In this document: piece after piece, positions 1-11,477 of the stretch
Numbering within the stretch: the stretch's first letter is position 1
Layout of the letters: every line of letters begins with the position of its first letter
Source of the DNA: a virus
Strand: one strand, 5' to 3'
Length of the DNA stretch: 11,770 nt
UHGV virus genome: UHGV-0394577
Made by a program: the position numbers and the translations under genes
Notes under the pieces: generated by a model
The model's database searches: none
Told to the model about the DNA's origin: nothing
What the model saw: the letters and a program-made list of their open reading frames with translations, nothing else

Positions 1-73
1 CACTTCAGGAAGATTTAACAAATCACTCAAAAAACGCAAAGACAGAACAGCACCAAGATATAAAGCGCTGGAG

Positions 74-274
74 ATGACAGAGCACGCCTTAAAGGTGGCT
101 ATAAAAGTGATAGACATCACAGCGGGAGAAGGATACGCGAAAGCACATCCCGAACTGATAAGCGCATTCATGACCACAGCGGCGGCAAACTTTGCCACGC
201 TGACAGAGCGGGAGATTGCCGAAGCGGAACAGGTAACAACCATCAACGTTAAAACCGGAGAGGTGAAATCATGA
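74..274 (+). CDS. hypothetical protein, possibly 5'-truncated by the window edge
   Basis: ORF track 66 aa. The same frame is open back to position 2, and the GGAG directly abuts the ATG at 74 (poor spacing), so the true start may lie upstream of the window. Stop overlaps the ssb start (ATGA). Confidence 0.4.
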   Translation: MTEHALKVAIKVIDITAGEGYAKAHPELISAFMTTAAANFATLTEREIAEAEQVTTINVKTGEVKS

Positions 275-1566: not shown

Positions 1567-1773
1567 ATGGCTGAAGAGAAAAAAGGCGGTGTTTCGGTGT
1601 ACATAAGCCCCGAAATCGTGGAGGTGCTCAAGCAGCGCCACAAAAAAAACTATGAGGCTGGCGTTGCGGCTGGACTGGATCCGCTGATGACGCCGGAGCC
1701 GTCGATAGGTTCACTTGTGCGATCTTATTTACTTGCGGCGCTTGGGATGCACAAAAATTATGGGGGCGAATAA
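1567..1773 (+). CDS. hypothetical protein (68 aa) immediately upstream of the major capsid gene
   Basis: ATG with AGAGGA SD; stop TAA overlaps the capsid ATG (TAATG), suggesting translational coupling. Confidence 0.5.
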   Translation: MAEEKKGGVSVYISPEIVEVLKQRHKKNYEAGVAAGLDPLMTPEPSIGSLVRSYLLAALGMHKNYGGE

Positions 1774-2828
1774 TGGCAGTCAAAGCAATAGCACTTAACA
1801 CACACCAGCTTTTCGCGTACCTGAATCGCGAGGATATTGCGGAATTTAAATTTAGTCCGCTGTTTACCGCGCTGTTTTTCCCGAACGTGGCGACATTCAA
1901 CACGCAGGACATCATGTTAGATAACCTGGATATTGAAGAAGTCACTATGTCGGCGTTTTGTTCGCCTATGGTTGGCAGCCAGGTTCAGCGCGATAAAGGG
2001 TACGAAACCAGCATTATCCGCCCTGGCTACATGAAGCCAAAACACGAAATCGATCCATTAAAAACAATAATGCGCATGGCTGGAGAAGATCCGGCACAGC
2101 TTAACGATCCTACCTACCGCCGTATGCGCCTGATTACTGGCAACATGCGCCGCCAGATAAACGCCATTAAAGCGCGTGTTGAATGGCTGGCGGTGAATGC
2201 GGTAACGACCGGAAAAAACATCATTGAGGGCGAAGGCATAGAACGCTATGAAATCGACTGGAAGATACCGGAAAAAAACATCATAGAGCAGGCCAAAGGC
2301 CGTAAATGGTCCGAGCAGGATAAAGACATACACGACCCAATCTATGACATTGAGCTATACGCAGATCAGGCAGGTTGCCCCGCCAACGTCATGATTATGG
2401 GCGTTGATGTATGGCGCATGTTACGCAGCTTTAAAAAATTCCGTGAGCTGTACGATCTTTCCCGTGGTTCAGAATCCGCCGCAGAGCTGGCATGTAAAAA
2501 CCTGGGCGAAGTGGTGAGCTTTAAAGGCTATCTTGGTGATCTGGCCCTTATCGTCTATTCCGGCAAATACACTGACAGCGACGGCACAGAAAAATATTTC
2601 CTTGAGCCTGATTTGCTGGTCCTGGGCAACACCAACAATAAAGGGCTGGTGGCCTATGGTGCGATTATGGAACAGGAAGCGGTAAGAACGGGCGCAACGC
2701 AAAACATGTTTTACCCGAAAAACTGGATTGAAGACGGCGATCCGGCGATTGAGTACGTGCAGACACACAGCGCACCGCAGCCGGTACCGGCAGATATTCG
2801 CAAATTTGTTACCGTCAAAATTGGTTAA
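1773..2828 (+). CDS. major capsid protein, phage lambda gpE-like
   Basis: 351 aa; colinear similarity to lambda E recalled from memory (FKFSPLFTALFF, PGYMKPKHEI, DPTYRRMRL, WRMLRSFK, RGSESAAELACKNLGEVVSFKGYLGDLALIVYSGKY, LVLGNTNNKGL, YPKNWIEDGDPA, C-terminal FVTVKIG). Confidence 0.92.
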   Translation: MAVKAIALNTHQLFAYLNREDIAEFKFSPLFTALFFPNVATFNTQDIMLDNLDIEEVTMSAFCSPMVGSQVQRDKGYETSIIRPGYMKPKHEIDPLKTIMRMAGEDPAQLNDPTYRRMRLITGNMRRQINAIKARVEWLAVNAVTTGKNIIEGEGIERYEIDWKIPEKNIIEQAKGRKWSEQDKDIHDPIYDIELYADQAGCPANVMIMGVDVWRMLRSFKKFRELYDLSRGSESAAELACKNLGEVVSFKGYLGDLALIVYSGKYTDSDGTEKYFLEPDLLVLGNTNNKGLVAYGAIMEQEAVRTGATQNMFYPKNWIEDGDPAIEYVQTHSAPQPVPADIRKFVTVKIG

Positions 2829-2839
2829 CGGGGGATTCT

Positions 2840-3175
2840 ATGAACACTCCATACATTGAGTTATTTGCAGGCAGTCAGCAGGTATCAACGACGCTGGTAC
2901 ATTTTGCCGCTGATGCTGGCGTTATTCAGGAATTTACCCCGCTGATGCTGGTGGACAATGGCGAGTTTAAGCCGTGGGATGGTCAGGAATCTGGCAAGGC
3001 TGTTTATCTGACCTCGTACCCCGTGGACACGTCGACGCAGAAATCAGCACAGTGCTACAAGACGGGGATATTCAATATTGCCGCCGTTAACTGGCCTGAG
3101 AGCGTCGACACCGATGCGAAAAAATGCGCCGCCTTTGCGGGTTCTGGCGTATCCGTTCAGCCGCTGGCCCGATAA
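2840..3175 (+). CDS. head decoration protein, phage lambda gpD-like
   Basis: 111 aa (lambda D is about 110 aa); shared motifs TPLML, WDG, YKTGIF, WPE, AFAGSG; SD GGGGGAT. Gene order here is E then D, the reverse of lambda. Confidence 0.8.
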   Translation: MNTPYIELFAGSQQVSTTLVHFAADAGVIQEFTPLMLVDNGEFKPWDGQESGKAVYLTSYPVDTSTQKSAQCYKTGIFNIAAVNWPESVDTDAKKCAAFAGSGVSVQPLAR

Positions 3176-3187
3176 GCAGGGGGAACG

Positions 3188-3601
3188 ATGGCAACGAATG
3201 AAAGCATCATGACGCTACCGCTGGCGAGTAAATTTAAAGCCGAAGCGCGTGCAATGGCTGACAGAGGTTTATCAACCTATGAGGCCGTATATCAACTAAA
3301 CAAACTGGAAGAGCAGGACAAGCCGCGCGCTGATGCGATTATGGCGCTTCATGAGCATAAAGACTATCAGCCGCTGTTGCGTGCAATGGCAAACGTGCCA
3401 TGTATTAGCGTCGATAATGCTCGTGAAATCCTGAACATGACCATAGACCAGGAGCGCCCAAAGGTTGCGCCGGAGCTTACCGCAGCCTTTGAAAACTTTA
3501 TGGACATGCACAGCCCGCAAGCCGTATCAGCAGGCATGGCATACGATGGAAGAAACCCTGGCGATGACGGCGACATCGATCGCATACTGAAAACCATCTG
3601 A
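3188..3601 (+). CDS. hypothetical protein (137 aa), in the position occupied by FI in lambda
   Basis: Good SD (AGGGGGAA); acidic C-terminus; followed directly by a terminator. No recognisable sequence similarity, positional inference only. Confidence 0.5.
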   Translation: MATNESIMTLPLASKFKAEARAMADRGLSTYEAVYQLNKLEEQDKPRADAIMALHEHKDYQPLLRAMANVPCISVDNAREILNMTIDQERPKVAPELTAAFENFMDMHSPQAVSAGMAYDGRNPGDDGDIDRILKTI

Positions 3602-3606
3602 GACAG

Positions 3607-3631
3607 GCCGGAGAAATCCGGCTTTTTTTTT
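3607..3631 (+). terminator. rho-independent terminator (hairpin GCCGGAGAAATCCGGC + T9)
   Basis: Third copy of the same hairpin, identical to the copy at 972-987; the T-run runs into the cosQ-like sequence. Confidence 0.6.
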
Positions 3632-3698
3632 ACGGGTCCTTTCCGGCATATGGACCCGTTACGGGGCGGCGACCTCGCGCGTTTTCGCTATTTATGAG
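3631..3698 (+). other. lambda-type cos site (cos1): cosQ-like TACGGGTCCTTTCCGG, cosN GGGCGGCGACCT at 3664-3675, start of cosB
   Basis: TTTACGGGTCCTTTCCGG...GTTACGGGGCGGCGACCTCGCG.GTTTTCGCTATTTATGA matches the joined right and left ends of phage lambda DNA as recalled from memory; lies upstream of the Nu1-like gene as in lambda. Confidence 0.75.
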
Positions 3699-3808
3699 CC
3701 TTTTCGGGTTGGTGGTGGTGGTTTTGTTGTTCGCTCTATCTCCATGAATAAAAAGGGAAAGATAACACCAACACACCAACCTGAAGCATTAATTAAGTGG
3801 GGGTATTG

Positions 3809-4351
3809 ATGAAATCGCACCTGATGAACAAAAAAACTATGGCGCAAAGCTGCCGCGTAAGCGCCACTGCGTTCGATAAGTGGGGAGTAACTCCCGTTGA
3901 GCGTAAAGGCCGTGAGGCGTTTTATGATGTTGCTAGCGTGATAGACAATAGGGTTAACAATGCAATTAACCAGCTTACAAACGACAAAGGCGAGATTGAT
4001 GATGATGAACTTTTACGCGTAAGAATCAGATTAATGACGGCCCAGGCGGAAGCGCAGGAACTTAAAAACGAGCGCGAACGCGGCGAGGTGATTGATACAG
4101 AGTTTTGCATGTACGCGCTTTCAAAACTGGCAAGTCAGATTTCTTCAATCATGGACAGCCTCCCGCTTACTATGCAAAGGAACTTCCCACAGATGCCCCC
4201 CGCTATGCTGCATGGGCTTAAGAGGGAAGTAGTTAAAGCCTGTAATGCCAGTGCCAGAGTTGCCGACAACCTCCCACAGATACTGGCTGATTACTTGAAA
4301 GAAACAACCGGAAACGTACCGGAAAAGTTGCTACAGAAGAAAGGCGAGTAA
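3809..4351 (+). CDS. terminase small subunit, lambda Nu1-like
   Basis: Track ORF 3797..4351 begins at GTG; ATG 3809 follows a GGGGG SD. The middle and C-terminal regions resemble lambda Nu1 (RLMTAQAEAQELKNERERGEVIDTEFCMYALSKLASQISSIMDSLPLTMQRNFPQ; LKREVVKACNASA), while the N-terminal putative DNA-binding region is divergent. Confidence 0.85.
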   Translation: MKSHLMNKKTMAQSCRVSATAFDKWGVTPVERKGREAFYDVASVIDNRVNNAINQLTNDKGEIDDDELLRVRIRLMTAQAEAQELKNERERGEVIDTEFCMYALSKLASQISSIMDSLPLTMQRNFPQMPPAMLHGLKREVVKACNASARVADNLPQILADYLKETTGNVPEKLLQKKGE

Positions 4352-4380
4352 CAGACGCGCAATTATTGAACAAAAATGAG

Positions 4381-4441
4381 AAAGGATCTGATAATGGCAT
4401 TTTCTGGCTAAAATGCCTCGTGTCAGATCCTTTCTTTTTTT
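4381..4441 (+). terminator. compound hairpin + T-run: likely terS terminator and, on the opposite strand, the R-element hairpin of cos2 cosB
   Basis: AAAGGATCTGA...TCAGATCCTTT inverted repeat with nested GGCATTTT/AAATGCC stem, followed by T7; geometry mirrors the lambda cosB inverted R elements. Confidence 0.5.
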
Positions 4442-4472
4442 AATATTTTCATTGTTAAACAGTCTGTTACAG

Positions 4473-4571
4473 AGAAGAAGAACGGATCTGACTTTTGCCG
4501 GAAAATTTTCATAAACAGATAAAATCCGCGAGGTCGCCGCCCCGTAACGGGCCATAATTCCAGGAAGGACC
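4473..4571 (-). other. second lambda-type cos site in inverted orientation (cos2): cosQ-like, cosN (4531-4542, minus strand), R3-like CCGTTCTTCTTC
   Basis: Reverse complement reads CGGGTCCTTCC...CCGTTACGGGGCGGCGACCTCGCGGATTTT...TTTATGAAAATTTTCCGG...CCGTTCTTCTTC, matching lambda cos further into cosB than cos1 does. Confidence 0.7.
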
Positions 4572-4606
4572 CGACGACACCAGACTATCAGAACGATGGG
4601 GGCACA

Positions 4607-4888
4607 ATGACAGAAGCCGAACTACTGGGATTAATACGCCGCGTCGCCGGAATCAGCCAGCAGGCTGACGAACAGACCGCGCAGCCGGACAGCGTGACCG
4701 CCGAAAATTACGCGCGTGTGGTTGCTGAGGTGATGCGCCGTGATGGTATCCAGCTTAATGGCGTTGATATGCGCAACATACGGATACGCGTTCTTGAAAT
4801 GCTGGCCTACCGTCGCCGCGTGCAGACGTACAGGGAAAAAGCAAAAATTACGTACCACTGGAAGAAGCCGGAACGACTGCGTACGTAA
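4607..4888 (+). CDS. hypothetical protein (93 aa)
   Basis: ATG with GATGGGGG SD; basic C-terminus; stop overlaps the palindrome CGTACGTAATACGTACG. Confidence 0.5.
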   Translation: MTEAELLGLIRRVAGISQQADEQTAQPDSVTAENYARVVAEVMRRDGIQLNGVDMRNIRIRVLEMLAYRRRVQTYREKAKITYHWKKPERLRT

Positions 4889-5108
4889 TACGTACGGATA
4901 TCGAGATAAAGACGGTTTTTTTACCCCACTGGGGAAAAGGTACGCACCTGAATCATCATTATCGTGATCAAGGGTATGTAAAGCCCACCAGCCTGATCAA
5001 CAGTTAACCGGAAAAAAAGCCAGGTATGGGGGGGTAGTGGTTAGCCACGAACAACGAACAAGCTGGACACCGCGCCCACTCTCACGCAGAGAAAAAATTA
5101 CCGTTTCG

Positions 5109-5236
5109 TAGTAGTTAACATGTTAACTACCTGATGAAGTGTTTTTATTGATTTTCCCTTTATGATTCATCTGGTTGCGTGCAAAAAATGTTAACTACCT
5201 TTTTGGTAAAAATGTTAACAGGGCAGCGGTTAACAT
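5109..5236. repeat. cluster of five GTTAAC-containing repeats (ATGTTAACTACCT twice)
   Basis: GTTAAC at about 5112, 5121, 5188, 5213 and 5228 within 125 bp of non-coding DNA; possible operator array. Confidence 0.4.
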
Positions 5237-5365
5237 TTAACCTGGCAAAAATTCCGGTAGGTGGTGATCCCCATATCGGGGAACATCCACCAGCTTCGTT
5301 TTTATAAATTAAACACCTGGGAAAATCAGACTCTGAATTGTGCATTTTTTCAGCAAATCATTTTA

Positions 5366-5385
5366 GTTATACGTTTGGTTATACG
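5366..5385. repeat. two direct GTTATACG repeats (12-bp spacing)
   Basis: GTTATACG at 5366-5373 and 5378-5385. Confidence 0.45.
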
Positions 5386-5468
5386 GTTTAAAAGTTGAAT
5401 CAGGAACATTCTTTTAAATCATTCAGTTACATGATCAATTAAACTACTCTCGTGCCGACCAAATTGCC

Positions 5469-5494
5469 CACCGGATATCACCGGAAAGCACCGA
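5469..5494. repeat. three direct CACCGGA repeats at 10-bp phasing
   Basis: CACCGGATATCACCGGAAAGCACCGA; the same dimer recurs at 5553-5569 and 7383-7399. Confidence 0.45.
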
Positions 5495-5509
5495 ATAAGA
5501 CAGGGATAA

Positions 5510-5540
5510 CCCGCTAATCACTTGATTGGCGGGTTTTTTT
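5510..5540 (+). terminator. rho-independent terminator (CCCGCTAATC / GATTGGCGGG stem + T7)
   Basis: 10-bp stem (one G-U pair), 4-nt loop, 7 T; sits between the two CACCGGA repeat sets upstream of int. Confidence 0.5.
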
Positions 5541-5552
5541 ATGGTTTTTAGT

Positions 5553-5569
5553 CACCGGATATCACCGGA
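5553..5569. repeat. CACCGGATATCACCGGA direct repeat (second copy)
   Basis: Identical 17-mer to 5469-5485. Confidence 0.45.
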
Positions 5570-5596
5570 TTTATAAGCTATCAGCCGGATTTTTTA

Positions 5597-5644
5597 GTTA
5601 TACGCTTAGTTATACGGGCTGGCGTATAACTAAAGCCGTATAAC
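5597..5644. promoter_or_regulatory. symmetric array of GTTATACG motifs (two direct then two inverted) just upstream of int
   Basis: GTTATACG at 5597 and 5609, CGTATAAC at 5623 and 5637, forming an imperfect palindrome of about 50 bp centred near 5620, 35-85 bp upstream of the int ATG. Candidate integrase arm-type or regulator binding sites. Confidence 0.45.
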
Positions 5645-5679
5645 TAAAACCCTGTTTTTTCGTGTGGAATCATAGACAT

Positions 5680-6921
5680 ATGGCGAGAAAAACAACCCAA
5701 TTAACCACAGTGCAGATCAAAGCAGCCAGGCCAGCGGAAAAGGAGTACACCCTACAGGACGGCGGGGGGCTTTTTCTCCTGGTCAAACCGTCCGGATCAA
5801 AACTCTGGAGATTTTCCTACTACCGACCATCGGACAAAAAAAGAATATTGCTGAGTTTTGGATCGCTTGAAGATGTTTCCCTGGCTGATGCCAGAAAACG
5901 CCGTAGCGAGTACAGGACGTTAATCAGTGCCGGAACTGACCCGCAGGACCACGAGAGGCAAAAAAGAGAGACAGAGGCCCGAAGACAAGGGAACACGTTC
6001 GAAAATGTGGCGGCGGCATGGTACCAGGTGAAAATCAGCCAGAATCTGGCCCCCAACACGATTAAAGACATCTGGAGATCGCTGGAAAAATATGTATTCC
6101 CGTTCATCGGTAACACGCCAATAGACACCCTGACCGCTCGCAGGTTTGTTGAGGTGCTTACCCCCATCAAGGAACGTGGCAACCTGGAAACACTCAAACG
6201 GGTTTTACAGCGAGTCAATGAAGTAATGGATTACGCCGCCAACAGTGGGCTGATCGATACCAATCCGGCTATGAATGTGCGTAAGGCGTTCCCCTCCCCT
6301 GTAAAAAAACATATGCCAACAATCCGCCCCGAGCAGTTGCCGGAGCTTATGCAGGCTTTATCAGTATCGGCAACAGAACGGCAGACCAGATTACTGATCG
6401 AATGGCAGTTACTGACCGTAACCCGTCCCGCCGAAGCGTCATCAACTCGGTGGGATGAAATCGACATGGACGCGAAGCGATGGACGATACCCGCCGGACG
6501 CATGAAGATGAGGCGTGATCACGTTATCCCGCTTTGTAGTCAGGCTATGGCGGTACTGGAGGCTATGAAACCAATCAGCCATCACCGCGATTACGTTTTC
6601 CCGAGCCTGAAAGACCCACGGCAGCCTATGAACAGCCAGACCGCAAACGCAGCATTGCGGCGGATGGGGTTTGGCGGGGTTCTGGTTTCTCACGGTATGC
6701 GCGCCATATTCAGCACCGCAGCGAACGAAGAAGGATTTGAGCCGGACGTAATAGAGGCCGCACTAGCCCACGTGGACACCAACGAAGTGAGACGGGCATA
6801 CAACCGGAGCAACTACATAGAAAAACGCATCGTGCTTATGCGCTGGTGGGGCGAATTTGTCGAGGCGGCGGCAACGGGCGTGACCCTTGCCAGTGGTAAA
6901 AGGGGTATTCGGGCCGTGTAG
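5680..6921 (+). CDS. int: tyrosine recombinase / integrase, P4-family
   Basis: Track ORF 5662..6921 begins at GTG; ATG at 5680 gives the N-terminus MARKTTQLTTVQIKAARPAEKEYTLQDGGGLFLLVKPSGSKLWRFSYY typical of P4-like integrases; C-terminal catalytic region with R...HVIPL...HGMR..F...A and a Y in RRAYNRSNY. Confidence 0.92.
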   Translation: MARKTTQLTTVQIKAARPAEKEYTLQDGGGLFLLVKPSGSKLWRFSYYRPSDKKRILLSFGSLEDVSLADARKRRSEYRTLISAGTDPQDHERQKRETEARRQGNTFENVAAAWYQVKISQNLAPNTIKDIWRSLEKYVFPFIGNTPIDTLTARRFVEVLTPIKERGNLETLKRVLQRVNEVMDYAANSGLIDTNPAMNVRKAFPSPVKKHMPTIRPEQLPELMQALSVSATERQTRLLIEWQLLTVTRPAEASSTRWDEIDMDAKRWTIPAGRMKMRRDHVIPLCSQAMAVLEAMKPISHHRDYVFPSLKDPRQPMNSQTANAALRRMGFGGVLVSHGMRAIFSTAANEEGFEPDVIEAALAHVDTNEVRRAYNRSNYIEKRIVLMRWWGEFVEAAATGVTLASGKRGIRAV

Positions 6922-7417: not shown

Positions 7418-7624
7418 ATGGAAGCAATCAAAAAAGTCATCTTTCGCCAGGAAGTAAAAAAACTTATCCACATCAAGGCAGACAGCACGCTGCAAAGCAT
7501 GATCAACGCCGGAGAATTCCCGCAGGGTTTTCGCGTTGGTTTACGCCGTCGAGGATGGTATGAGGATGACGTAATCGCCTGGATGAAAGAACGCGAACAG
7601 GAAGCACGCGGAACGGCTGCTTAA
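7418..7624 (+). CDS. alpA: AlpA/Vis-family phage regulatory protein (excisionase-like HTH)
   Basis: 68 aa; STLQSMINAGEFPQGFRVGLRRRGWYEDDVIAWMKER fits the AlpA-family pattern (FP, G.R..GW.E.EV..W); sits downstream of int as in P4-like and PICI elements. Confidence 0.75.
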   Translation: MEAIKKVIFRQEVKKLIHIKADSTLQSMINAGEFPQGFRVGLRRRGWYEDDVIAWMKEREQEARGTAA

Positions 7625-7656: not shown

Positions 7657-7680
7657 GCGGCCCCGATATGGAGCCGCCTT
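7657..7680 (-). terminator. possible terminator for minus-strand transcripts (5-bp GC stem, then T6 on the minus strand)
   Basis: AAAAAAGCGGC...GCCGCC on the plus strand; on the minus strand the stem is followed by TTTTTT. Weak stem with a long loop. Confidence 0.3.
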
Positions 7681-8000
7681 TCTGAACAATTAACCCGCTG
7701 CGCATTATGTATCAACAAACATAAGCCAGGGCATGATAGCCGCTATCAGGCTGGTGGGCAATGCTATCAGTCTGTTTCAGTGCGTTTCCATAACTGCGAA
7801 GCTCTCTCCTTTGATGAGTATTCTTTAAGGTACTTCTCAAGGGCAAAAGAACACGGCGCGAATCGTTCTGATTCATGCTCTTTCTTTCTGCGTCGTCTTT
7901 TTCGTGCAGGTGATGTTTTTTTGGTTGATTCTTCGTTGGTCATTGTGTGCGCCTGTAAAGCAATGCGCCGGAGTTCCTCACACCACGGCGCTGATAGTTT

Positions 8001-8192
8001 TTATCCTTTGGGTTCTATGCCGCGCCGCTTTAGTTCAGTGCGCCCCAACTCTTTAAGCCAGTTGGCTAGGCTTATGCCGTCGCTCTGTGCTTCTTTGTCG
8101 AATTGCTCTTTTAGCTCTGGAGAAATTCGCATTCTGAATTGTGGGGATTGCCCGTCCCCTTTAGGGCTTTTATCGCGTTTGATTGTTGACAA
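8001..8192 (-). CDS. ribbon-helix-helix (RHH) DNA-binding protein, putative regulator
   Basis: C-terminal FRMRISPELKEQFDKEAQSDGISLANWLKELGR fits the RHH pattern (beta strand then two helices, as in MobC/CopG-type proteins). Proposed start is TTG 8192 with AGGTGA SD; alternatives are ATG 8132 or the track's TTG 8273. Confidence 0.4.
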   Translation of the reverse strand: MSTIKRDKSPKGDGQSPQFRMRISPELKEQFDKEAQSDGISLANWLKELGRTELKRRGIEPKG

Positions 8193-8235
8193 GTGGTCAC
8201 CTATTGAATTAGCCTTTCTATTGTTAGGTGACCAC
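8193..8235. promoter_or_regulatory. operator-like inverted repeat GTGGTCACCT-n23-AGGTGACCAC
   Basis: Perfect 10-bp inverted repeat; each half contains the palindromic GGTCACC/GGTGACC core; located at the 5' end of the RHH gene and upstream of the Ash/Icd operon. Confidence 0.4.
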
Positions 8236-8326
8236 CTTAACACAAGAGCACTTAAAAAAGCAAAGCCCCGCAAGTGTCATTACCACTCGCAGGGCTTCTA
8301 ACCAACAACGTAAACTAGGAGCCGTT

Positions 8327-8524
8327 ATGGTTGCCGTAAATCATATAACACACCTTGTACACACACAAACGGCCTTTGTGTGGCGTTTTCTGGCCCTGAG
8401 TGCCGGAGAATCTCAAATCATCCACGTAACCGCCTGGACGGAACGCGAAGCGCGTAGCCGTTGCCCGTCAGGTTGTGTTGCTGTATTTGCCGCTCGTATT
8501 CGTCAGGGGTCACATCATGCGTAA
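8327..8524 (+). CDS. Ash/Icd-like small protein (P4-type), short paralog
   Basis: 65 aa from ATG 8327 (SD TAGGAG), internal to track ORF 8228..8524. TAFVWRFLALS...VTAWTEREARSRCP...VFAARIRQG is paralogous to the C-terminus of the next ORF and resembles Ash/Icd-like proteins as recalled from memory. Confidence 0.5.
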   Translation: MVAVNHITHLVHTQTAFVWRFLALSAGESQIIHVTAWTEREARSRCPSGCVAVFAARIRQGSHHA

Positions 8525-8984
8525 AAACCGCTTGCAAAAAATTATAACGGGGCTGTATGCTTCCCCCGTCGCCCACATGGCGACCGGGTTTGACAGCCTG
8601 AATACTGTAGCGGACAGCCGCTTACATTCCGATATGCGGTTTTTTTGTGTCCGTAAACCTACCCATACCCGCATTATGGCGGGGCGTAACGGGGGAGCCT
8701 TTGCGCTCGCTGGTTCCTACAGTACCAGTCTGTCAACCCTGTTACGTCTCGCCACCATGTTTGACAGCGTAGTAGCGAGACTCCTTAAAATTACTGTAGG
8801 AGCCTTTCACATGGCTGTATCCGCACGCCCTTACTTTGTCTGGCGCTTTATGCAGTGCCACCACAGCAGCATTGATGTATTCACCGTTACCGCAGCCACT
8901 GAACGCGAAGCACGCGCCCAGCTGCCGCACGCACATCTGATTTTTGTCGCCCGTATTCGTCAGGGGAAAACCTATGCACAATAA
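8517..8984 (+). CDS. Ash-family-like protein, long paralog
   Basis: 155 aa from ATG 8517 (SD AGGGGT); start overlaps the previous stop (ATGCGTAA); C-terminus YFVWRFMQC...VTAATEREARAQLP...IFVARIRQG is homologous to the upstream ORF. Confidence 0.5.
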   Translation: MRKNRLQKIITGLYASPVAHMATGFDSLNTVADSRLHSDMRFFCVRKPTHTRIMAGRNGGAFALAGSYSTSLSTLLRLATMFDSVVARLLKITVGAFHMAVSARPYFVWRFMQCHHSSIDVFTVTAATEREARAQLPHAHLIFVARIRQGKTYAQ

Positions 8985-9726: not shown

Positions 9727-11477
9727 AACTTGCACCGAACGTAAAACAGCAGTCACGCGGCATAAAACACAAAGGAACAGAAGTCATTATTTTTGCGGGT
9801 AGTGATGCCTGGTCACACGCTAAACAATGGCAGGAACATGACGCGCGTATGGCCGGAGATAATGAGCCTCCTGTGTGGCTTGGGGATCAGCAGTTATCCG
9901 AACTGGATAAGCTGCAAATTGTGCCGGAAGGCCGAAAATCAGTACGCATATTCAGGGCCGGACATCTTGAACCTGTAATGATAAAGGCGATTGGTCAGAA
10001 GCTGGCGGCGGCAGGTGTACAGGATGCAAATTTTTACCCTGAGGGAATGCACGTTCAGGAGGTGGAGAACTGGCGCGAATATCTGGCCCGTGAGCGCCAG
10101 AATCTTTCTGAAGGTCTGTTCGTTGAGCTTCCGGTAAAGCAAAAGGCGCAACTTTCGCAGATGGCGGACAGTGAACGCGCTCAGCTGCTTTCCGATCGCT
10201 TTGATGGCGTTTGCGTACATCCTGAAAGTGAAATCGTTCACGTATGGCGCGGCGGGGTATGGTGTCCGGTCAGCACAATGGAACTTAGCCGCGAAATGGT
10301 GGCGATCTATTCAGAGCACAGGGCCACTTTCAGCAAGCGCGTAATCAATAACGCCGTTGAAGCGTTAAAAGTTATTGCCGAACCAATGGGCGAGCCGTCC
10401 GGCGATTTGTTGCCGTTCGCCAATGGTGCGCTTGACCTGAAAACGGGGGAATTTTCCCCGCACACGCCGGAGAACTGGATCACCACGCACAACGGTATTG
10501 AGTACACGCCACCAGCACCAGGGGAGAACATCCGCGATAACGCGCCAAATTTTCATAAATGGCTTGAGCACGCAGCCGGAAAAGACCCGCGCAAGATGAT
10601 GCGTATATGTGCCGCGCTGTACATGATTATGGCGAACCGGTACGACTGGCAGATGTTTATTGAGGCCACCGGAGACGGCGGAAGCGGTAAAAGTACATTC
10701 ACGCATATAGCCAGCCTTCTGGCAGGGAAACAGAACACGGTAAGCGCTGAAATGACCTCACTTGATGATGCTGGTGGACGTGCGCAGGTTGTCGGGAGTC
10801 GTCTTATCGTCCTGGCTGACCAGCCGAAATATACAGGCGAAGGAACGGGCATCAAGAAAATCACGGGCGGCGACCCCGTGGAAATTAACCCGAAATATGA
10901 AAAGCGTTTCACGGCGGTAATCAGGGCGGTGGTGCTGACGACCAACAACAACCCGATGATATTCACCGAACGGGCCGGAGGCGTGGCACGTCGTCGGGTT
11001 ATTTTTCGCTTTGACAATATCGTTAGCGAGGCAGAAAAGGACAAGGATTTGCCGGAGAAGGTCGCGGCTGAAATCCCTGTGATTATCCGCCGATTACTGG
11101 CGAACTTTGCCGACCCTGAAAAGGCCCGGGCTTTACTCCTGGAACAGCGCGACGGTGATGAAGCACTGGCAATAAAGCAACAGACGGATCCGGTTATTGA
11201 GTTTTGCCAGTTCCTGAATTTTCTGGAGGAAGCGCGCGGCCTGATGATGGGTGGCGGTGGCGATTCAGTGAAGTACACGACCAGGAACAGCCTTTACCGC
11301 GTCTATCTGGCGTTTATGGCGTACGCAGGCAGGAGCAAACCGCTAAACGTAAATGACTTTGGCAAGGCTATGAAGCCCGCTGCAAAAGTTTACGGACATG
11401 AATATATTACGCGGAAAGTTAAGGGAGTAACGCAGACTAACGCAATAACAACAGACGATTGTGACGCGTTTTTATAA
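9723..11477 (+). CDS. P4-alpha-like primase/helicase replication protein (SF3 helicase domain)
   Basis: 584 aa; Walker A GDGGSGKST, Walker B-like LIVLAD, later VVLTTNN motif; architecture typical of P4-family/PICI primase-helicase; iteron origin immediately downstream. Confidence 0.88.
   Translation: MKLAPNVKQQSRGIKHKGTEVIIFAGSDAWSHAKQWQEHDARMAGDNEPPVWLGDQQLSELDKLQIVPEGRKSVRIFRAGHLEPVMIKAIGQKLAAAGVQDANFYPEGMHVQEVENWREYLARERQNLSEGLFVELPVKQKAQLSQMADSERAQLLSDRFDGVCVHPESEIVHVWRGGVWCPVSTMELSREMVAIYSEHRATFSKRVINNAVEALKVIAEPMGEPSGDLLPFANGALDLKTGEFSPHTPENWITTHNGIEYTPPAPGENIRDNAPNFHKWLEHAAGKDPRKMMRICAALYMIMANRYDWQMFIEATGDGGSGKSTFTHIASLLAGKQNTVSAEMTSLDDAGGRAQVVGSRLIVLADQPKYTGEGTGIKKITGGDPVEINPKYEKRFTAVIRAVVLTTNNNPMIFTERAGGVARRRVIFRFDNIVSEAEKDKDLPEKVAAEIPVIIRRLLANFADPEKARALLLEQRDGDEALAIKQQTDPVIEFCQFLNFLEEARGLMMGGGGDSVKYTTRNSLYRVYLAFMAYAGRSKPLNVNDFGKAMKPAAKVYGHEYITRKVKGVTQTNAITTDDCDAFL

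Follow-up and report, generated by a model that had tools for sequence, protein, structure and literature searches.

A small terminase gene between two facing lambda-type cos sites in a phage-inducible chromosomal island of the EcCICFT073 family

The virus genome UHGV-0394577, analysed here as a single stretch of 11,770 nucleotides (the window), is an entire phage-inducible chromosomal island (PICI) that belongs to the EcCICFT073 family and is circularly permuted. Within it, two lambda-type cohesive end sites (cos), cos1 on the plus strand and cos2 on the minus strand, converge upon each other at a distance of 0.87 kb with a Nu1-type small terminase gene, terS, in between. An earlier note on this DNA, made from the letters alone, had proposed two opposed lambda-type cos sites bracketing a small terminase gene, and this proposal was borne out by an exact cosN on both strands, a cosQ at 23 nt, a 76-nt inverted repeat and the assignment of the gene to the Nu1 type. 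The segment is probably a packaging module with two specificities, such that the island TerS would act at cos1 and the terminase of a helper phage at cos2. The paired arrangement is already a published hallmark of the EcCICFT073 family, of which the window is a TerS-type member.

The evidence is drawn from the window itself and from a sample of 70 family islands and approximately 100 lambdoid phage cos regions collected by two IMG/VR pattern scans and from RefSeq loci. Each cosB was typed by the 120 nt beyond I2, which resolved six types. The features of the module are given below in the order of the plus strand, with distances counted from cosN.

3605-4572, packaging-specificity module comprising cos1, terS and cos2
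3605..3633, plus strand, strong intrinsic-terminator-like hairpin AGGCCGGAGAAATCCGGCTT with a run of nine T that continues into the cosQ flank of the adjacent cos1
3634..3640, plus strand, cos1 cosQ core GGGTCCT, 23 nt upstream of cosN
3664..3675, plus strand, cos1 cosN GGGCGGCGACCT, the lambda cohesive-end sequence
3676..3706, plus strand, cos1 I2-like segment beginning CGCGCGTTTTCGCTATTTATGA, of which about 25 nt are common to cos2 and lambda
3707..3781, plus strand, cos1 cosB of T type: GGTTGGTGGTGGTGG at 3707-3721 and inverted CACCAACACACCAACC at 3766-3781, with an A/T-rich spacer between them
3809..4351, plus strand, terS, full-length Nu1-family small terminase of 180 amino acids (aa); alternative starts are GTG 3797 and ATG 3824
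4384..4390, minus strand, cos2 cosB R1 core CAGATCC, at +153
4424..4430, minus strand, cos2 cosB R2 core, inverted, GGATCTG on the cos2 strand, at +113
4431..4483, minus strand, putative I1-like A/T-rich spacer between R3 and R2, TAACAGACTGTTT, assigned by comparison with lambda TAACTTAATGTTT
4484..4490, minus strand, cos2 cosB R3 core CAGATCC within GTCAGATCCGTTCTTCTTC, at +53
4491..4530, minus strand, cos2 I2-like segment CGCGGATTTTATCTGTTTATGAAAATTTTCCGG
4531..4542, minus strand, cos2 cosN GGGCGGCGACCT
4566..4572, minus strand, cos2 cosQ core GGGTCCT, 23 nt from cosN

A repeat search of the window identified the two sites as inverted arms (3633-3708 and 4498-4573) that are 76 nt long, 79% complementary and 789 nt apart. 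The 12-mer GGGCGGCGACCT is exact in both arms and identical to bases 1-12 of lambda (L124). With up to one mismatch allowed, it has three matches in the window compared to 0.07 expected, and none of 200 shuffled sequences reached three. The 7-mer GGGTCCT, which we take from the work of the Feiss laboratory to be the cosQ core, lies exactly 23 nt upstream of cosN not only in cos1 and cos2 but also at the right end of lambda and in phages L111 and L013; in the published EcCICFT073 work, cosQ is given as TTTACGGGTCCTTTCC. On the other side of cosN, both sites continue into a TTTATGA/I2-like stretch with the pattern CGCG..TTTT..CT.TTTATGA that also follows the lambda cosN. The perfect core shared by the two sites, noticed earlier and put at 24 bp, measures 25 nt (CCCGTTACGGGGCGGCGACCTCGCG). 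When the sites were aligned with lambda and other lambdoid cos regions, matches were obtained for cosN, for the cosQ spacing, for I2 and, in the case of cos2, for the R positions.

The same layout is present in hundreds of independent complete genomes, which rules out the earlier note's concern that one copy might be an assembly artefact. The third near-match to cosN in the window, GGGCGGCGACCC (10865-10876, one mismatch), is located inside the primase gene with no cosQ or I2 context and is probably due to chance. Single-base changes within the 12-nt cosN of one site were seen at cos1 in islands L142, L152, L156 and L168, and at cos2 in L158.

As had been described from the letters, cos1 diverges from cos2 into repeats of its own, GGTTGGTGGTGGTGG and CACCAACACACCAACC; the divergence sets in after approximately 25 nt. 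These are positioned at +44..58 and +103..118 from cosN, parallel to R3 and R2 of a phage cosB; cos1 therefore agrees with a phage cosB in architecture only, having two inverted repeats of a different sequence. In architecture, the T type is a variant of the G type, which has its cores GGTTGTTG / CAACAACC at +51/+111, and the G-type phages (L013 type) are those with the TerS closest to the island TerS. Taken together, cos1 and terS appear to have been copied from the cos-terS module of this one phage lineage and to have diverged since.

The ATG of terS is situated 134 nt downstream of the cos1 cosN. The encoded protein was matched to Pfam Phage_Nu1 PF07471 (E 2.2e-22, 79.9 bits against a cut-off of 30) and to PHROG 57, terminase small subunit (E 1.4e-52, residues 4-178). 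It may be considered in terms of an N-terminal region resembling a winged helix-turn-helix (wHTH), a middle region, a C-terminal region that aligns to the TerL-binding end of Nu1, and a tail of approximately 12 aa. The alignment of the protein with lambda Nu1 and five other lambdoid phage TerS proteins spans its whole length, and its identities by region, with RppA of EcCICFT073 included, are as follows.

L013-type phage TerS: N-terminal DNA-binding region 56%, middle 50%, C-terminal 40%
PhiR5_1 TerS: N-terminal 27%, middle 50%, C-terminal 44%
Lambda Nu1: N-terminal 29%, middle 44%, C-terminal 29%
RppA: N-terminal 16%, middle 10%, C-terminal 18%

In the alignment, RppA stops approximately 40 residues before the island TerS. 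The last 40 or so residues of Nu1-type TerS proteins have been assigned to TerL binding, a segment that is absent from the Rpps (PMC9026076); since the island TerS is full length in the alignment, it keeps this segment. Membership of the Rpp family was defined by a length of 139-154 aa, a wHTH and a dimerisation domain, the absence of a TerL-binding C-terminus, and a relationship to RppA, RppB or RppC. A length of 180 aa, an identity to RppA of 10-18% and a Nu1-like C-terminus rule out the cassette gene as an Rpp. A tblastn search with RppA against the window gave no match. Sequence searches of the PDB gave no match of any kind at E<0.01 with the island TerS, though the structure of RppC has been solved, and no match to RppC or Nu1 chains with the 93-aa protein encoded beyond cos2.

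The second site is of a different kind. Counting from the first cosN base, the R cores of cos2, which is of the P1 type, are located at +53, +113 (inverted) and +153, the same positions that they occupy in phages L111, L028 and L079. In lambda, the R cores (CGTTTCC) are found at 53/114/155, and thus the cos2 spacing is within 2 nt of lambda; the lambda-like cosB that the earlier note saw at cos2 is upheld by these three cores. Of 5,426 complete E. coli genomes, 223 have a prophage that combines the P1 cosB with its cognate terS. Judged by its sequence, cos2 is a full copy of the cos of another phage class with a bona fide phage-type cosB. The P1 and G types are known here from prophage-derived IMG/VR contigs and RefSeq prophages only. 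Among the named phages of INPHARED, a search for P1- or G-type cosB returned partial matches only (PhiR5_1, 85% over half of the query; phage 21, over cosQ-cosN-I2 only).

Across the islands, the same slot is occupied by further phage-type cosB sequences. The P2 type resembles the phage 21-like cosB of the CFT073 helper prophage, and is 100% identical over 41 nt to that of L005-type phages; its identity to the CFT073 prophage is 92.7%. The P3 type, which is that of EcCICFT073 cos2, matches phages L097/L074 (91% over 105 nt), and the G type matches phages L013/L050/L060. The group of phages that share the P3 cosB have a TerS of 169 aa that starts ATQTEVARHL and has a quite different N-terminus. 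The EcCICFT073 cos2 cosB itself (L003 8100-8297) reads CCATGTCCGGTTTCTC / GAACCGGACATG / AACCGGACATC.

A comparison of the two sites within the 70 islands revealed a difference in linkage. The T-type cosB is always on the 5' side of terS in all of the terS islands, including the three that are without cos2 (L008, L025 and L134), and the A-type cosB is always on the 5' side of rppA in all of the rppA islands. The cosB of cos2 re-assorts: P1, P2, a P2 variant or none at all with terS, and P3 or G with rppA. Islands of the P1 and P2 types are identical up to ...TTTATGAAAATTTT and again from ...TTTTGTTCAATAATTGCGC, such that the swapped block is exactly R3-I1-R2-R1. This pattern would be expected if the cassette protein reads the cosB adjacent to it while cos2 is matched independently to phages. 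Of the roles suggested in the earlier note, separate specificities for a helper terminase and a satellite TerS is the one that the comparative evidence favors. In several islands, the cos1 arms have cos2-type spacers, which indicates exchange between the arms.

There is also a short class of islands with 524-530 bp between the cosN sites, no intact cassette gene, and flanking phage-type cosB sequences of the P3 and G types (L109 6796-7331, L030, L066, L136, L148, L154, L155, L162, L165 and L166). The segment between the sites holds scrambled remnants of the rppA 3' end, with most of rppA lost, and a 114-aa open reading frame (ORF) within it was judged to be spurious.

To follow the orientation of the segment in nature, the predicted product of an inversion between both cosN was built and then searched against complete genomes. 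Five complete genomes match the inversion construct in one piece over 96% of its length, compared to 486 genomes with the window orientation that match it only over the inner 63%. In JNE181771 and PM4-5, the annotation places terS on one strand and the capsid, decoration, 137-aa and 93-aa genes on the other. The left site of the inverted islands consists of a cos1-type cosQ spacer joined to a P1 or P2 cosB, and the right site of a cos2-type spacer joined to a T cosB; the exchange point therefore lies within the shared core. JNE181771 and PM4-5 differ in both cos2 type and chromosomal site, and thus the inversion arose more than once. JNE181771 also holds a second island in the usual orientation. 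The short derivative without a gene is found in both orientations, at 4 versus 6 loci.

No invertase was found next to the inverted repeats; the only recombinase in the window is the attachment site (att) integrase at 5662-6921. The invertible terS cassette that had been suggested earlier is supported as a natural polymorphism, with no sign of a dedicated switch. We read the inversion as an occasional homologous exchange in the 25-bp core, which could be mediated by RecA or by the Red system of a helper, the latter being active at cos cuts; selection would maintain terS in the same direction as the late genes. From cos chemistry, it may also be reasoned that cutting both sites leaves an inner fragment with the same 5' overhang on both ends, which could be re-ligated either way. 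The present data do not separate cutting and rejoining from homologous exchange.

The novelty implied in the earlier note does not hold, since two functional cos sites have been published for EcCICFT073 (Fillol-Salom et al. 2018 ISME J, PMC6092414; 2019 Mol Cell, PMC6739421), and the CFT073 sequence shows them converging around rppA as the window sites do around terS. In CFT073 (L003), a plus-strand cosN at 7559-7570, rppA (144 aa) at 7660-8094 and a minus-strand cosN at 8298-8309 form the convergent set, and the cos sequences agree with the published Figure S1A. According to these two papers, either EcCICFT073 site enables plasmid transduction by lambda or phi80, and cos1 is the site recognised by the complex of RppA and helper TerS. 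Deletion of cos1 lowers EcCICFT073 transfer, deletion of cos2 raises it (lambda, phi80), and the double deletion abolishes it (PMC6092414, PMC6739421). Both papers recognised no phage cosB in either site, which holds only with respect to lambda, phi80 and the resident phage, given the 91% match of cos2 to L097/L074. Why there should be two cos sites is listed by them as an open question (PMC6092414, PMC6739421). The words "inverted" and "opposite" are absent from the 2019 text (PMC6739421), and the papers make no comment on cos orientation. A 2022 review by Murialdo and Feiss (PMC9026076) covers the Rpp site only and never mentions the second cos. Three points were not found in the papers searched: that cos2 is a modular phage cosB, that cassette-linked and free cosB sequences follow different patterns among the islands, and that the segment between the cos sites is naturally invertible.

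The 2018 study included two islands that encode TerS, those of IHE3034 and 18098, which were barely transferred and not taken further (PMC6092414). The primer arm used there for cat insertion into the IHE3034 island maps onto R1 of a P2-type cos2, approximately 125 nt from cosN (L029 10485-10527; also L094, L104, L127 and L131; PMC6092414 supplement). The cat marker was probably placed inside the cosB of the IHE3034 cos2, and its position might have contributed to the near-zero transfer of that island.

From the anatomy, homologies, linkage, module exchange and inversion polymorphism observed here, we infer which protein uses which site in the window island and why the sites face each other. 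At cos1, the island TerS would bind the T-type cosB and recruit the helper TerL via its Nu1-like C-terminus; concatemers of the island would be cut there and packaged rightwards. At cos2, an unmodified terminase of a P1-class helper would start packaging leftwards. Two sites would thus give the island a second packaging specificity and a wider range of helpers. The inverted layout would keep each site from terminating packaging begun at the other. Packaging in lambda has a fixed polarity, and its termination requires that cosQ precede cosN; a motor started at one site would therefore run through the other, met in the wrong orientation, and halt only on reaching a further copy of the site where it began. 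Were the sites direct repeats, the ends would be mixed and terS would be deleted, both of which the inverted layout would avoid. It would also let the inner segment flip by recombination in the 25-bp core, with flipping as a passive event.

A more ambitious version of this proposal is offered tentatively, and it may well not hold in full. It describes a flippable module of dual specificity in which cos2 is a plug-in helper cosB, available in at least four phage specificities, and in which cos1 and TerS capture the TerL of a different class of helper. Since the two sites have a common core and identical cohesive ends, recombination at cos, or cutting and rejoining by terminase, would invert the segment.

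Several observations weigh against a module with two specificities. The experiments on terminase cutting and cos function cover the EcCICFT073 homologues only, and extending them to the window island is by analogy. Both TerS-type islands that were tried in 2018, IHE3034 and 18098, showed hardly any transfer (PMC6092414), and the rise in lambda and phi80 transfer upon deletion of EcCICFT073 cos2 means that cos2 can carry a cost with non-cognate helpers (PMC6092414, PMC6739421). The natural islands L008, L025 and L134 have lost cos2. In CFT073, the resident helper prophage has a cosB of the 21 type and the island cos2 is of the P3 type; cos2 therefore need not fit the co-resident helper. Binding of the T-type cosB by the island TerS and its pairing with a helper TerL are predictions from homology and linkage. 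A promoter scan identified no sigma-70-like promoter between the hairpin at 3605-3633 and terS, and a terminator-like hairpin ahead of cos1 with no recognisable terS promoter is a weak point with regard to terS expression.

Some of these observations may be explained differently if cos2 is a largely neutral or mildly harmful relic, gained repeatedly when island and helper concatemers recombine at cosQ-cosN-I2 and tolerated only as an inverted copy. The shared core offers an obvious route of acquisition, islands without cos2 exist in nature, L158 has a cosN with one mismatch at cos2, and the loss of cos2 improves EcCICFT073 transfer by lambda and phi80. However, cos2 is intact in nearly all of the approximately 70 islands, with the exact 23-nt cosQ spacing and a complete R3-I1-R2-R1 at phage spacing, and four phage cosB types have been cleanly placed in the same slot, which looks like repeated selection as opposed to decay. 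Moreover, cos2 alone gives some EcCICFT073 transfer. A relic is considered unlikely. It is more doubtful still that the island TerS acts in the manner of an Rpp, forming a heterodimer with the helper TerS that blocks phage packaging and retargets it to cos1, with cos2 secondary. The gene does take the place that rppA has between the two cos sites, an origin of the Rpp proteins from TerS has been suggested (PMC6739421), and Nu1-type TerS proteins dimerise via their DNA-binding domains (PMC9026076). Nevertheless, the island TerS is full length, with the TerL-binding-aligned C-terminus that Rpps are missing; its identity to RppA is 10-18%, and no RppC chain was matched in the PDB at E<0.01.

A decoy function has also been considered, in which cos2 draws helper terminase away from phage DNA or provokes double cutting and thereby lowers helper yield. 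A helper-type cosB at cos2 should bind helper TerS, and PICIs generally interfere with helper packaging. Even so, a start at cos2 would still package island DNA, which makes a decoy hard to tell from a second entry point; one site per 11.8-kb unit is a weak sink, and the interference by EcCICFT073 maps to rppA, not to cos2. This explanation is regarded as very improbable. The least probable of all is a programmed invertible switch, or phase variation, that turns terS on and off or sets the direction of packaging. Both orientations do occur in nature: the five genomes with inverted terS represent two cos2 backgrounds and different chromosomal sites, one strain has both forms, and the gene-less derivative is divided 4 versus 6 by orientation. 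Yet the module has no invertase beside it, only the integrase for the att site elsewhere in the window, and the 486:5 ratio among terS islands fits rare homologous exchange (RecA or helper Red) within the 25-bp core and subsequent selection, and does not fit a balanced switch. A dedicated invertase switch of the Hin/Gin/Cin or FimB/E type was rejected in view of the missing recombinase and of this skew.

The identity of the window as a whole island was established from its ends and gene content. When the end of the window is joined to its start (junction 11770/1), the sequence aligns unbroken to other islands with 88-91% identity over approximately 600 nt; the 11,770 bases are therefore a circular permutation of one whole island. 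Such a permutation could stem from an excised, replicating or packaged form, or from a circularised assembly. The order of genes in the islands is int, alpA, DUF4222, primase, ssb, perC, gpE-like capsid, gpD-like decoration, 137-aa gene, cos1, terS, cos2 and 93-aa gene. The ORFs of the window are, in order, ssb, perC, capsid, decoration, 137-aa, cos1-terS-cos2, 93-aa, a tyrosine integrase, an AlpA-like regulator, DUF4222 and a D5-type primase. The gene set is that of the EcCICFT073 family, with int, alpA and a primase-replicase, no lysis or tail genes, and a length of 11,770 bp compared to the expected 10-15 kb or so. Synteny with EcCICFT073 is accompanied by identities of 97% for the primase, 94% for the capsid, 95% for the decoration protein, 91% for the 137-aa protein and 86% for the 93-aa protein. 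In strain AVS0542, the island is integrated beside clpS, and its genes, from int through to the 93-aa gene, are in the usual order. The neighbours of the module are as follows.

3188..3601, plus strand, 137-aa gene, PHROG 1999, weakly similar to the scaffold-like C-terminal part of a head maturation protease; left flank of the module, kept in all islands
4607..4888, plus strand, 93-aa gene, PHROG 1561, no function assigned; right flank of the module, kept in all islands
4889-5661, att region, mid-window
5662-6921, tyrosine integrase for the att site, mid-window

Three proteins are encoded upstream of the module at 1773-3601, namely a major capsid protein of 351 aa that resembles lambda gpE, a gpD-like decoration protein of 111 aa and the 137-aa protein. 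The island has no portal, protease, TerL or tail genes. The EcCICFT073 homologues c1499 and c1500 had no phenotype in the 2018 paper (PMC6092414); their role is possibly in remodelling of capsid size. At 8228-8984, there are two overlapping ORFs with similar ends (...FVWRF...TEREAR...ARIRQG), which resemble the tandem "Icd-like cell division inhibitor" genes annotated at the same position in related islands; a Pfam search with them gave no match.

About one complete E. coli genome in four harbours an island of this family: a query of 1.5 kb taken around the cos-terS-cos module matched 1,374 of 5,426, with at least 80% of the query length covered in 486. They carry virulence and defence genes between strains, and the packaging phage and site set the range of hosts and helpers. 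The findings are also relevant to the engineered PICI "drones" that are built from EcCICFT073. With cos2 as a genuine and exchangeable phage cosB, the question of why there are two cos sites acquires a concrete and testable answer. TerS-type islands are common, and they would represent a second strategy of hijacking beside that of the Rpps. The basic picture is unchanged because the arrangement itself had already been published.

The closest known system is EcCICFT073. The module is in the same slot between the 137-aa and 93-aa genes, the cosN and cosQ are identical, the orientation is likewise convergent, and an island-specific cosB at cos1 is linked to the gene that follows. The differences are in the cassette, which encodes a Nu1-type TerS of 180 aa in the window and an Rpp of 144 aa in EcCICFT073, and in the cosB types, which are T at cos1 and P1 at cos2 in the window as opposed to A and P3 in EcCICFT073. 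Compared to the cos-Nu1 region of lambdoid phages, the window has the same cosQ (-23), the same 12-nt cosN, an I2, and at cos2 an R3-I1-R2-R1 series at +53/+113/+153, with the TerS gene downstream of cos1. The pairing of different R sequences with different TerS recognition regions is also known from the cosB/TerS pairs of lambda and phage 21. In contrast, a lambdoid phage has one cos, whereas the window has two facing sites of different specificity on a satellite of 11.8 kb. The TerS of SaPI1 and SaPIbov1 offers an analogy, as a satellite small terminase thought to redirect the helper TerL to a satellite site; however, these islands use headful (pac) packaging in Gram-positive hosts, their TerS is of an unrelated family, and they have neither a cos nor a second site of the helper type. 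SaPIbov5 and SaPIbov4 are alike in carrying a satellite copy of a helper cos that is packaged by the unmodified helper terminase, and SaPIbov4 is cited as having two putative cos sites. They differ in their phage family and cos sequence, and SaPIbov5 has no satellite terS beside its site.

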